From Escherichia coli (lineage in GTDB: Bacteria; Pseudomonadota; Gammaproteobacteria; Enterobacterales; Enterobacteriaceae), in NCBI RefSeq assembly GCF_050320075.1, contig NZ_CP190018.1: 64,000 nucleotides of DNA; one strand, given 5' to 3'. The notes below the pieces were generated by a model, which saw only the letters and a list, made by a program, of their open reading frames with translations, was not told the origin of the DNA and did not search any database. How positions within the stretch are numbered: the stretch's first letter is position 1; every line of letters begins with the position of its first letter. Shown one piece after another: positions 15,001 through 16,603 of the stretch. The position numbers and the translations under genes are program-made.

Positions 15001-16603
15001 CCTGTCGTTAATGACGCCACGGGATAATGTTACGCCAGTTAAACTTGAAGGGGTGGTCCGGATTACCGATAGCGCGACATTAACTATCGGAAATGGCGTC
15101 GATACGACGCTTGCCGACCTGACGGCTGCCAGTCGGGGCAGTGTCTGGCTTAACAGCAATAATTCCTGTGCAGGCACCAGCAACTGCGAATATAGAGTAA
15201 ACAGTTTACTCCTCAACGACGGTGATGTTTATTTATCAGCACAAACAGCAGCGCCTGCCACAACTAACGGTATCTACAATACGCTGACCACCAGTGAACT
15301 TTCCGGCAGCGGTAATTTCTACCTGCATACCAACGTTGCAGGCTCCCGGGGCGATCAACTGGTCGTCAACAACAACGCCACTGGCAATTTTAAAATCTTT
15401 GTTCAGGATACCGGCGTCAGCCCTCAGTCTGACGACGCGATGACGCTGGTGAAAACAGGGGGAGGGGATACTTCGTTTACGCTGGGTAATACCGGCGGTT
15501 TCGTTGATCTTGGGACCTATGAGTATGTCCTGAAAAGCGACGGCAACAGCAACTGGAACCTGACCAATGATGTCAAACCCAACCCGGACCCCAACCCAAA
15601 TCCGAAACCGGATCCAAAACCAGACCCAAAACCGGATCCGAAACCAGACCCGACTCCCGCTCCAACGCCGACACCCGTCCCGGAGAAACGCATCACGCCT
15701 TCTACAGCAGCCGTACTCAATATGGCAGCAACATTACCGTTGGTCTTTGATGCTGAGCTAAACAGTATTCGCGAGCGGTTGAACATAATGAAAGCGAGTC
15801 CACACAACAATAATGTCTGGGGGACGACGTATAACACCCGTAATAATGTCACCACCGATGCGGGTGCCGGGTTTGAGCAGACGCTGACCGGAATGACGGT
15901 GGGGATCGATAGCCGTAATGATATTCCTGAGGGGATTGCGACGCTGGGCGCTTTTATGGGTTATTCCCATTCACATATTGGTTTTGATCGTGGAGGACAT
16001 GGCAGTGTGGGCAGTTATTCTCTGGGGGGCTATGCCAGCTGGGAACATGAAAGTGGTTTCTATCTGGACGGTATCGTGAAGCTGAACCGCTTTGAAAGTA
16101 ACGTAGCCGGTAAAATGAGCAGCGGTGGAGCCGCCAACGGCAGTTATCGCAGCAACGGGCTGGGCGGTCACATTGAAACCGGGATGCGATTTACGGATGG
16201 TAACTGGAACCTGACGCCGTATGCATCGTTAACGGGGTTCACCGCTGATAACCCCGAATATCATTTATCCAATGGCATGGAATCGAAATCAGTCGATACC
16301 CGCAGTATATATCGTGAACTGGGCGCAACGCTGAGTTACAACATGCGTCTGGGGAACGGTATGGAAATTGAGCCGTGGCTGAAGGCGGCTGTGCGCAAAG
16401 AATTTGTCGATGATAACCGGGTGAAGGTGAATAATGACGGTAATTTCGTCAATGATTTGTCGGGCAGACGTGGAATATACCAGGCAGGTATTAAAGCCTC
16501 ATTCAGCAGTACGTTAAGCGGACATCTCGGGGTGGGGTATAGCCATGGTGCCGGTGTGGAATCCCCGTGGAACGCGGTGGCTGGTGCGAACTGGTCGTTC
16601 TGA
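12029..16603 (+). CDS. ypjA: large autotransporter adhesin (AIDA-like repetitive passenger, C-terminal beta-barrel translocator)
   Basis: ORF-track ORF 11900..16603; likely start ATG 12029 (MNRTSPYYFRRSVLSLLISALIYAQPGMAAF signal peptide) preceded by AGAGGA; repetitive passenger motifs; Pro-rich linker; C-terminus ...NAVAGANWSF. Confidence 0.85.
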   Translation: MNRTSPYYFRRSVLSLLISALIYAQPGMAAFTTNVIGVVNDETVDGNQRVDERGTTNNTHIINHGRQEVYGGISNSSIIETGGEQLVSIHADINGQANNTTINGGRQSIEYGGISTGTIIESGNQYVYKGGTSNDTTIKGGTSRIEGGTANGTIIDGGGQSVSTQGHVDGTTINKSGYQDITQGSLATNTTINGGRQYVEQSTVETTAIKNGGEQRVYESRALDTTIEGGTQSLNSKSTAKNTQIYSGGTQIVDNTSSSDVIEVYSGGVLDVRGGTATNITQHDGAALKVTTYDLTVSGTNSEGAFSIHNNVAENVLLENGGHLDINAYGSANKTIIKDKGTMSVLTNAKADATRIDNGGVMDVAGNATNTIINGGTQNINNHGIATGTNINSGTQNIKSGGKADTTNISSGSRQVVEKDGTATGSNISAGGSLIVYTGGIAHGVNQETGSALVANTGAGTDIEGYNKLSHFTITGGEANYVVLENTGELTVMAKTSAKNTTIDAGGKLIVQKEAKTDSTRLNNGGVLEVQDGGEAKHVEQQSGGALIASTTSGTLIEGTNSYGDAFYIRNSEAKNVVLENAGSLTVVTGSRAVDTIINANGKMDVYGKDVGTVLNSAGTQTIYASATSEKANIKGGKQTVYGLATEANIESGEQIVDGGSTDKTHINGGTQTVQNYGKAINTDIVSGLQQIMVNGTAEGSIINGGSQVVNEGGLAENSVLNEGGTLDVREKGSATGIQQSSQGALVATTRATRVTGTRADGVAFSIEQDAANNILLADGGVLTVESDTTSAKTQVNAGGREIVKTKATATGTTLTGGEQIVEGVANETTINDGGIQTVSANGEAVKTTINEGGTLTVNDNGKATDIIQNSGAALQTSTANGIEISGTHQYGTFSIAGNLATNVLLENGGNLLVLAGTEARDSTVGNGGAMQNLGQDFATKVNSGGQYTLGRSKDEFQALARAEDLLIAGGTAIVYAGTLADASVSGATGSLSLMTPRDNVTPVKLEGVVRITDSATLTIGNGVDTTLADLTAASRGSVWLNSNNSCAGTSNCEYRVNSLLLNDGDVYLSAQTAAPATTNGIYNTLTTSELSGSGNFYLHTNVAGSRGDQLVVNNNATGNFKIFVQDTGVSPQSDDAMTLVKTGGGDTSFTLGNTGGFVDLGTYEYVLKSDGNSNWNLTNDVKPNPDPNPNPKPDPKPDPKPDPKPDPTPAPTPTPVPEKRITPSTAAVLNMAATLPLVFDAELNSIRERLNIMKASPHNNNVWGTTYNTRNNVTTDAGAGFEQTLTGMTVGIDSRNDIPEGIATLGAFMGYSHSHIGFDRGGHGSVGSYSLGGYASWEHESGFYLDGIVKLNRFESNVAGKMSSGGAANGSYRSNGLGGHIETGMRFTDGNWNLTPYASLTGFTADNPEYHLSNGMESKSVDTRSIYRELGATLSYNMRLGNGMEIEPWLKAAVRKEFVDDNRVKVNNDGNFVNDLSGRRGIYQAGIKASFSSTLSGHLGVGYSHGAGVESPWNAVAGANWSF
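15580..15652 (+). repeat. short tandem repeat encoding PNPDPNPNPKPDPKPDPKPDPKPDPTP linker inside the autotransporter
   Basis: Near-perfect reiteration of CCGAAACCGGAT/CCAAAACCAGAC 12-nt units. Confidence 0.6.

Follow-up and report, generated by a model that had tools for sequence, protein, structure and literature searches.

Rigid proline spacers made of alternating proline/charged dipeptides are known from TonB-type proteins, whose (EP)n/(KP)n segments stay extended across an envelope compartment. In pertactin, an autotransporter of Bordetella, two proline-rich repeats have been described, with GGxxP (R1) and PQP (R2) as their units. The pertactin repeats are loops of a beta-helix, their variation from one allele to another is slow, and no antibodies binding R1/R2 were found (PMC8931430). 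In TibA, the self-associating autotransporter of ETEC, a proline-rich domain, some 50 residues long (aa 627-677), leads from the junction region to the membrane-embedded domain (PMC3835316). TibA, AIDA-I, Ag43 and YpjA are placed together in "Group 4" of an autotransporter classification (PMC9289746).

The locus under investigation is the ypjA/ehaD gene of Escherichia coli, in a 64-kb stretch of DNA that was analysed as a whole and is referred to here as the window. YpjA and TibA are encoded by different genes, but both show an autochaperone/junction domain, a proline-rich domain and a membrane domain in this order; the likeness concerns the published layout. As for pertactin, it carries, like YpjA, proline-rich repeats whose copy number shifts slowly between alleles or species, and the C-terminal part of P.69 pertactin aligns with the YpjA domain immediately preceding the linker. 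Unlike YpjA, pertactin has another repeat unit and its variation has been connected with allele shifts of the vaccine era; we know of nothing like these shifts for YpjA. TonB is an unrelated protein working in the periplasm, with which the linker shares a physical principle only. The gene is long annotated in K-12 and proline-rich domains and repeats are already described in TibA and pertactin, so that in these respects the locus is known. The open-access literature on ypjA/ehaD, TibA, ycgI and the proline-rich linkers of E. coli autotransporters yielded no account of the repeat polymorphism of this linker.

Gene architecture and anatomy of the repeat

The gene of the window is the orthologue of YpjA/EhaD, as judged from its chromosomal position and its near-identity to K-12 b2647 and RefSeq ypjA. 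The name "adhesin-like autotransporter YpjA/EhaD" is the one given by RefSeq both to the 100%-identity matches of a 651-nt query (15300-15950) and to K-12 b2647. Over the same query the K-12 gene is 94.5% identical, and the two genes are equal in length except for a 6-nt indel in the linker. The K-12 markers of the region (gab/csiD genes, ileY, ypjCB, ypjA and ssrA) are present, with ileY and ypjCB upstream of ypjA and a P4-like island separating ypjA from ssrA. A tblastn search of the 64-kb window retrieved no second copy of ypjA. The features of the gene are the following.

12029-16603, + strand: ypjA/ehaD coding sequence (ORF and translation; 1524 aa plus stop), an AIDA-I-type classical (type Va) autotransporter adhesin
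12029-12115, + strand: probable signal peptide, MNRTSPYYFRRSVLSLLISALIYAQPGMA followed by A, recognized by eye in the translation (basic N-terminus, hydrophobic core, A-x-A-like G-M-A site)
15197-15565, + strand: pertactin-like autochaperone/junction domain, capping the C-terminal end of the beta-helical passenger (PF03212, aa 1057-1179, E 9.4e-45)
15575-15685, + strand: whole proline-rich linker KPNPDPNPNPKPDPKPDPKPDPKPDPTPAPTPTPVPE (aa 1183-1219, 37 residues, proline at alternate positions)
15578-15601, + strand: PNPDPNPN sub-array; the 12-nt unit CCCAACCCAAAT occurs once here and as two perfect tandem copies in O157-type alleles (loci L002-L004 and L011)
15602-15649, + strand: (PKPD)4 (aa 1192-1207), four 12-nt units with 1-3 synonymous differences
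15650-15685, + strand: linker tail PTPAPTPTPVPE, with A replaced by D (K-12, C8) or by E (O157) in other alleles
15698-15796, + strand: alpha-helix predicted in the barrel pore (aa 1224-1256; residues 185-217 of the AlphaFold model, high pLDDT)
15815-16600, + strand: 12-strand outer-membrane beta-barrel translocator (PF03797, aa 1263-1502, E 6e-46)

The passenger matches PF16168 (AIDA) in eight stretches (Pfam, E 1e-139) and the TIGR04415 repeat in eleven (NCBIfam), and it is thus beta-helical, built of AIDA-type repeats, with a pertactin-like autochaperone domain at its end. P.69 pertactin (1dab) aligns with this domain through its C-terminal part and is also matched by Foldseek; Vag8 (7akv) aligns with the domain as well. 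Confident beta strands extend as far as aa 1179 in the AlphaFold model. The translocator scores 327 bits with TIGR01414 (cut-off 16), and its Foldseek matches are BrkA (3qq2, target TM-score 0.90), EspP, Hbp, AIDA-I (4mee) and NalP. The C-terminal 12-strand barrel and the pore helix are those of type Va autotransporters of the AIDA-I-like group. The start of the BrkA beta-domain (3qq2) can be aligned with the C-terminal part of the helix (aa 1242 onwards) and, by analogy with the solved translocators matched by Foldseek, the helix (aa 1224-1256) would be placed inside the pore. Three more narrowly defined families are related to YpjA without including it, i.e., Ag43/Cah (355 bits vs. an NCBIfam cut-off of 1200), the AIDA-I equivalog (271 bits vs. 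1200) and BafA (C-terminal domain, 279.5 bits vs. 700).

An earlier note on this DNA had reported a tandem PKPD repeat at the passenger-translocator junction of an autotransporter gene. Both the repeat and its position are confirmed: exactly four PKPD units are present, located after the PF03212 domain and before the pore helix and the PF03797 barrel, that is, at the site of the proline-rich domain in TibA. The span proposed for the repeat (15580-15652) does contain it, but it mixes the PNPDPNPN sub-array with the four PKPD units. The frame of the 1524-aa ORF reads NLTNDV, KPNPDPNPN, four times PKPD and then PTPAPTPTPVPEKRIT. Prolines number 18 in the 37-residue run and 19 in the 51-residue stretch that the W-x-L and ITPST anchors delimit. 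Tandem Repeats Finder recognized two arrays, the one at 15587-15653 (period 12, 5.6 copies, 74% matches) and the other at 15577-15651 (period 24, 3.2 copies, 79% matches). The self-identity at a 12-nt shift over 15580-15652 is 0.754, the maximum anywhere in the 64 kb, where the mean is 0.276 (sd 0.062); since it exceeds the mean by more than 7 sd, an artefact of chance or composition was discarded.

At the DNA level the repeat had also been described as near-perfect, and this is not the case. The peptide repeat is perfect, unlike its DNA units (CCGAAACCGGAT, CCAAAACCAGAC, CCAAAACCGGAT and CCGAAACCAGAC), any two of which show 1-3 mismatches in 12 nt, always at synonymous third positions. Within the linker, exact direct repeats reach 11 nt at most, at a spacing of 24 nt, and the long tract of identical units that characterizes contingency loci and VNTRs is missing. 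An antisense ORF (15517-15855, - strand, 112 aa) lies over the repeat; it was treated as a by-product of it. The + frame runs unbroken with conserved domains on either side.

The AlphaFold model has a mean pLDDT of 83, and values below 50 are limited to the linker and two short loops. For aa 1186-1216 (pLDDT <50) DSSP assigns no secondary structure; a regular and high proline content is thus found together with no predicted fold, as in the TibA-like spacers. No solved structure covers the linker, the PDB alignments ending at aa 1180 (pertactin, Vag8) and restarting at aa 1215 (Vag8, BrkA). The low pLDDT is compatible with an extended tether, without proving one, and a spacer function is suggested by the composition of the linker, its position and the analogy with the systems described above. 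A match to trypanosome procyclin (PF05887, Trypan_PARP) at aa 1181-1237 was rejected as homology (29.9 bits vs. a cut-off of 100), since it arises from the alternating-proline dipeptide composition common to both proteins.

Linker length in E. coli genomes

The survey was based on complete E. coli genomes, and the region is present in 2,524 out of 5,426 of them. Linker lengths were read from identity bands and from about 245 listed rows taken as evenly spaced samples, which fixes the frequency of rare variants only roughly. Nearly all the genomes exhibit one of three lengths between fixed anchors, i.e., 141 nt (window type), 147 nt (K-12 type) and 153 nt (O157 type), and each length class has a flanking haplotype of its own. 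Identity to the query of the class is at least 99%, a threshold that rules out any 6-nt gap, in 457 window-type, 1267 K-12-type and 267 O157-type records, all of them without gaps. In the case of the window type, 325 further records fall in the 95-99% band, and the nine rows listed from this band all have the window length. The linker regions of the different classes (280-290 nt) are 92-93% identical, indels included, and the identity is about 94-95% over 651 nt. The number of PKPD units is four in the window and O157 types, and 3+1 in the K-12 type. The comparison of copy number across strains, which had been proposed as a check of the repeat, gave a twofold answer: an identical repeat number in every related genome, which would have refuted the note, does not hold for the linker as a whole, but the PKPD units of the three classes remain four.

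Derived in-frame indels are rare (+6, -6 and -30 nt), and all the indels found in the complete genomes have lengths divisible by 6. In two cases the change is a perfect tandem duplication, of CCCAACCCAAAT (PNPN) in the O157 type and of CCAGAC (+6 nt, PD) in locus L008, and bears the signature of slippage. A 30-nt deletion between repeated units was found in locus L014. The -6 nt allele, which is otherwise the O157:H7 allele, occurs in no more than 3 of about 270 O157-type genomes (about 1% of the class), and represents the only change of PKPD copy number seen in an intact gene. The existence of these rare variants means that the array is not inert, and further ones certainly exist besides those found. 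The variation of copy number among close isolates that is typical of contingency loci was not observed in ypjA, nor was on/off switching by length (through the reading frame or promoter spacing), and the indels of the complete genomes keep the frame. The common length differences amount to 2-4 residues of a 37-residue linker, which is joined to a passenger about 1,150 residues long; a difference of this size might correspond to about 1 nm on a linker of about 11 nm.

A single out-of-frame read-through was detected on one short metagenome-type contig (P0061), and it may be an assembly error. Pseudogene copies of ypjA are common.

The paralogue at the ycgI site

A paralogue of ypjA is located outside the window, between ymgJ and minE, at the ycgI site, and is a pseudogene in K-12; the label assigned to it by PGAP is also "YpjA/EhaD". 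The two genes share about 96% identity in the DNA flanking the linker, a common DPTPEPTPTPVPEKRITPST tail and a linker at the matching position, and the same conserved small ORF of 39 aa lies ahead of both. Unlike ypjA, the paralogue has a shorter passenger (1122-1156 aa), and its linker is purely (NP)n, AATCCA being repeated without change in runs of 6 to 16 units. The seven loci read at this site all differ from each other (n = 38, 37, 32, 30, 24, 21 and 20), the differences in length being located in two homogeneous sub-arrays, and about 14 different lengths of the span were counted among 60 listed records. Copy number does vary among isolates at this site, as in contingency loci, and (NP)20-38 shows what a truly slippage-prone linker looks like, thus representing a natural control for ypjA.

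The comparison between the scrambled, stable array of ypjA and the pure, variable (NP)n of a nearly identical paralogue is a clean natural illustration of how instability is set by repeat purity, and not by periodicity at the protein level.

Possible meaning of the ypjA linker

In our opinion, with a probability of about 75%, the repeat is a proline-rich spacer of YpjA/EhaD, an extended tether that was built by slippage and that now behaves as a slow allele marker rather than as a switch. The 37-residue segment, which passes from PN/PD units to the four PKPD and then to PT/PA/PV units, ties the folded base of the beta-helical passenger to the alpha-helix predicted to run through the 12-strand barrel. 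On the basis of what is generally known of proline-rich regions, a proline-alternating segment should be incapable of compact folding, and the linker is most likely a soluble, polyproline-II-like tether, extended over about 10 nm and alternating in charge, which would hold the passenger off both the barrel mouth and the LPS core. In-frame duplications or deletions of 6 or 12 nt, due to replication slippage, would have built the array and would still alter it occasionally. The ypjA units would have diverged later at synonymous sites; slippage would be rare at present because of this divergence, and linker length would therefore have become a slowly evolving allele marker. In this sense the linker would be an ordinary feature and no fast-switching repeat, because its length differs between lineages yet is stable within each of them.

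The earlier note had pointed to something different, that is, a proneness to slipped-strand changes in length that could alter how far the passenger extends; in the stronger form of this reading, the copy number of a VNTR changes frequently between and within strains, thereby tuning how far the passenger projects. The in-frame changes in multiples of 6 nt, two of which are perfect duplications, speak for a capacity to slip, as do the -6 nt variant that arose within an otherwise identical O157:H7 allele and the 20-38 NP units of the ycgI-site paralogue, where such a process does occur. In ypjA, however, the units are scrambled (1-3 differences in 12, no exact repeat longer than 11 nt), PKPD stays at four copies across classes whose linker regions are only 92-93% identical, and length is unchanged in 1267, 457 and 267 genomes at least 99% identical to their class; the sole copy-number change in an intact gene reaches about 1% of its class, and the usual differences (2-4 of 37 residues) are small beside the roughly 1,150 residues of the passenger. 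Slippage is traceable in the history of the array, but the genome survey, with its lengths bound to haplotypes, largely refutes for ypjA the idea that slippage adjusts how far the adhesin reaches, and we regard this idea as unlikely. A related proposal is that linker length is an adaptive reach, adjusted to how thick the O-antigen or capsule layer is, fast-changing in the (NP)n of the ycgI site (where the 20-38-unit range might correspond to about 11 nm) and "frozen" in ypjA, with synonymous scrambling selected as a stabilizer; this appears rather improbable.

It might also be supposed that the main role of the linker is that of an exposed, immunodominant epitope, so that PTPAPTP/PTPDPTP/PTPEPTP and the extra PN or PNPN would reflect a slow antigenic diversification, such as has been proposed for the repeat regions of pertactin. 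The linker is predicted to be surface-exposed and unstructured, non-synonymous changes and indels distinguish the alleles within it, and allele variation of pertactin R1/R2 is likewise slow (PMC8931430); the same pertactin study, however, found no antibodies binding R1/R2 (PMC8931430), the common ypjA alleles are only three, and the gene is frequently a pseudogene, which leaves this explanation unlikely. Less probable still is a requirement of the proline-rich segment for secretion, in which the unfoldable stretch would form the first hairpin in the pore and initiate translocation of the passenger. The linker is directly N-terminal to the pore helix and, according to the hairpin model of autotransporter secretion, the segment just N-terminal to this helix is the first to emerge. 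On the other side stand the homologues, for which the family-wide view comes from protein-database clusters of fragments and more distant homologues rather than from full-length YpjA clusters. In those that are 43-77% identical over the aligned part, from autochaperone to barrel, the conserved W-x-L and ITPST anchors enclose 14 to 72 residues, with mutually unrelated linker compositions (PKPD, PEPE, PPxP, VDPV), and the YejO-type proteins, 51-55% identical (A1 alignment), are devoid of the proline linker, having just 7 residues between the same anchors; one YejO cluster alone includes 16,859 member sequences.

Considered alone, the spacer preferred here is of little importance, being a known kind of spacer with a slow length polymorphism in a known gene. 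Its length (141, 147 or 153 nt) can nevertheless be used as a simple marker of ypjA allele lineages. The fact that the linker is missing in the YejO-type relatives suggests that the spacer is optional, and as such it might be useful to those who build surface-display constructs on these translocators.

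The PKPD-encoding repeat of ypjA

The interval 15580-15652 falls within a + strand ORF of 4,575 nt that starts with ATG at 12029 and stops at 16601-16603. This ORF is ypjA/ehaD, whose product, according to Pfam, carries eight PF16168 AIDA repeat stretches, PF03212 (Pertactin) at aa 1057-1179 and PF03797 (Autotransporter beta-domain) at aa 1263-1502; the TIGR01414 barrel model matches as well. Membership of Ag43, AIDA-I and BafA was rejected, the scores being far under the curated cut-offs. YpjA has been grouped with Ag43, TibA and AIDA-I as biofilm-forming autotransporter adhesins (PMC9289746). 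By megablast, about 2,520 of 5,426 complete E. coli genomes have the region, always under the annotation "ypjA: adhesin-like autotransporter YpjA/EhaD" (K-12 b2647 included), and its neighbourhood in the window carries the K-12 marker genes for the region, in the order gabT, gabD, lhgO, csiD, a gene for an alpha-amylase-C-domain protein, a tRNA gene, ypjCB and ypjA. Both the gene and this kind of linker are known.

8808-8883, tRNA with anticodon CAT, called tRNA-Ile in the annotation of the matching genome
9997-11094, ypjCB-like ORF
11051-11090, end of the ypjCB-like ORF, 15-nt tandem repeat GTCCCGTTGTGAATA (2.7 copies, 84% matches)
11845-11964, + strand, 39-aa small ORF MPHSYAEYHHFIMMSLMSGEHNTLALSLQDESPGLVPVG, 64 nt upstream of ypjA
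15575-15685, + strand, whole stretch in which every other residue is proline (aa 1183-1219)
15602-15649, + strand, exact (PKPD)4 run (aa 1192-1207)

Translation across the repeat gives ...NLTNDV-KPNPDPNPN-PKPD-PKPD-PKPD-PKPD-PTPAPTPTPVPEKRITPST... in the ypjA frame. Tandem Repeats Finder reports a period-12 array (15587-15653, 5.6 copies, 74% matches) and a period-24 array (15577-15651, 3.2 copies, 79% matches), and the self-identity of 15580-15652 at a 12-nt shift, 0.754, is the maximum across the 64 kb (window-wide mean 0.276, sd 0.062), so that the tandem PKPD-encoding repeat reported in the earlier note is real and not due to chance. Its description as near-perfect holds for the peptide and not for the DNA, which is degenerate: any two of the four PKPD units (CCGAAACCGGAT, CCAAAACCAGAC, CCAAAACCGGAT and CCGAAACCAGAC) differ at 1-3 of their 12 positions, every difference being at a synonymous third position, and exact direct repeats in the linker reach at most 11 nt, with copies 24 nt apart.

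Position and possible role of the linker

The earlier placement of the repeat at the passenger-translocator junction proved correct; more exactly, the autochaperone domain precedes it and the pore helix follows. In comparisons with sequences of solved structures, the C-terminal portion of P.69 pertactin aligns with YpjA up to aa 1180 and Vag8, in the same autochaperone-side segment, up to aa 1170; past the linker, alignments begin again at aa 1215 with Vag8 and at aa 1242 with the BrkA beta-domain, and no solved structure aligned over the linker itself. An AlphaFold2 model of aa 1040-1524, built with 30 aligned homologues (mean pLDDT 83, pTM 0.76), has beta strands of high confidence as far as aa 1179, coil with pLDDT <50 at aa 1186-1216 and a helix at aa 1224-1256, followed by the barrel; Foldseek matched it to the translocators of BrkA, EspP, Hbp, AIDA-I and NalP, as well as to pertactin.

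Twenty-nine homologues, 43-77% identical to the window protein across the aligned autochaperone-to-barrel region, were compared between two conserved anchors, W-x-L, which closes the autochaperone domain, and ITPST, with which the helix region starts. The segment in between ranges from 14 to 72 residues, the shortest belonging to YejO-type proteins (WSLAENRAQITPST; homologues P0018-P0058), which are without the proline linker, and linker compositions are unrelated (PKPD, PEPE, PPxP, VDPV). Among the closest full-coverage homologues (P0002, P0003, P0006 and P0008, 75-77% identical, those with a source name being labelled Escherichia albertii), the linkers differ in whole modules, a 12-residue NPDPKPDPDPKP module being duplicated. 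The linker is thus an insertion that is optional and evolves fast, at a set point of the architecture; this favours a spacer role over one required in secretion. A 37-residue segment in which every other residue is proline and K and D charges alternate should be extended and soluble; at about 0.31 nm per residue it would span about 11 nm and would then serve as a tether from the barrel mouth to the beta-helix base. Its closest precedents are TibA, with a proline-rich domain in the same position as the YpjA linker (PMC3835316), and pertactin, whose proline-rich repeat regions R1 and R2 vary slowly and have been suggested as a possible stalk (PMC8931430).

Linker length in ypjA and in its paralogue

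The NLTNDV-to-EKRIT segment, read in 13 ypjA loci, shows three common lengths. Each type was used as a query over about 285 nt, where at least 99% identity excludes even a single 6-nt gap.

Common ypjA linker alleles and database records at each identity level
Type; segment; linker; records at >=99%; records at 95-99%
Window; 141 nt; PNPDPNPN-(PKPD)4; 457; 325
K-12; 147 nt; (PKPD)3-PN-PKPD; 1267; 47
O157; 153 nt; CCCAACCCAAAT (PNPN) perfectly copied a second time, then (PKPD)4; 267; 112

In the 95-99% band of the window type, all nine of the matches listed have the window length, and in each evenly spaced sample the length class follows the flanking haplotype. Rare derived indels are also present, all multiples of 6 nt. 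Two are in K-12-type copies annotated as pseudogenes: a perfect CCAGAC duplication adding PD (locus L008) and a 30-nt deletion between repeat units that leaves two PKPD (L014). The third, in an intact O157-type gene (L013), is a 6-nt deletion leaving three PKPD plus PN; this allele is otherwise that of O157:H7 and occurs in at most three records. Repeat number is therefore not identical everywhere, and the origin of the array by slippage was rightly read; however, the length changes of ypjA are few, for the most part old, and small in size (2-4 residues), and neither the present-day instability nor the likely effect on passenger reach proposed earlier applies to this gene. The sole out-of-frame change seen is in P0061, a YpjA fragment from one 2,963-nt contig of a public-run assembly, in which PKPDPKPDPKP is followed by IRNQTRLPIQR; either the PKPD array is truly frameshifted here or the contig is misassembled.

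A sampled match with a span 156 nt above the query turned out to be a second gene, also named ypjA by PGAP, which is absent from the window and is flanked by ymgJ and minE, at the site of the K-12 ycgI pseudogene. Around the linker its DNA and that of ypjA share about 96% identity, and the linker is a pure (NP)n array (L007:201-637; L012:6001-6499; L017-L021) with n = 38, 37, 32, 30, 24, 21 and 20 in the seven loci read. The differences are confined to two homogeneous sub-arrays, (AATCCG-AACCCA) in 2-9 copies and (AATCCA) in 6-16 copies; about 14 span lengths, in 6-nt steps, occur among the best 60 records, and the Belgian pig ETEC isolates ETEC4075 and ETEC4068 are exactly one unit apart in 601 nt otherwise identical. 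The paralogue linker is thus a true variable-number repeat of the slippage-prone type in a surface adhesin. Its contrast with the ypjA array, which is the most useful by-product of this analysis, shows that the latter is stable because its units are scrambled.

The paralogue is preceded by the same 39-aa ORF as ypjA (L012:3717-3836; 34/39 residues identical), annotated in both places as a hypothetical protein in RefSeq; possible readings are a leader peptide or simply conserved 5' sequence brought along by the duplication.

Decay of ypjA and the adjacent island

In strain F765 (L009:1-402), an IS3-family IS1203 is inserted exactly in the O157-type linker repeat, destroying the gene. Pseudogene or frameshift annotations mark further copies (L003, L008, L014, and one in a strain that matches the window at 100% over the 651-nt repeat region); these several disrupted copies indicate that ypjA decays often.

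Between ypjA and ssrA lies a P4-like integrative island (17091-28829), whose integrase end adjoins ssrA.

17091-19424, - strand, D5-type primase-helicase
24350-27076, - strand, 907-aa ORF adjoining the integrase
27095-28282, - strand, tyrosine integrase
28467-28829, - strand, ssrA tmRNA gene

The 907-aa ORF, which has no Pfam match, could be a cargo or defence gene.
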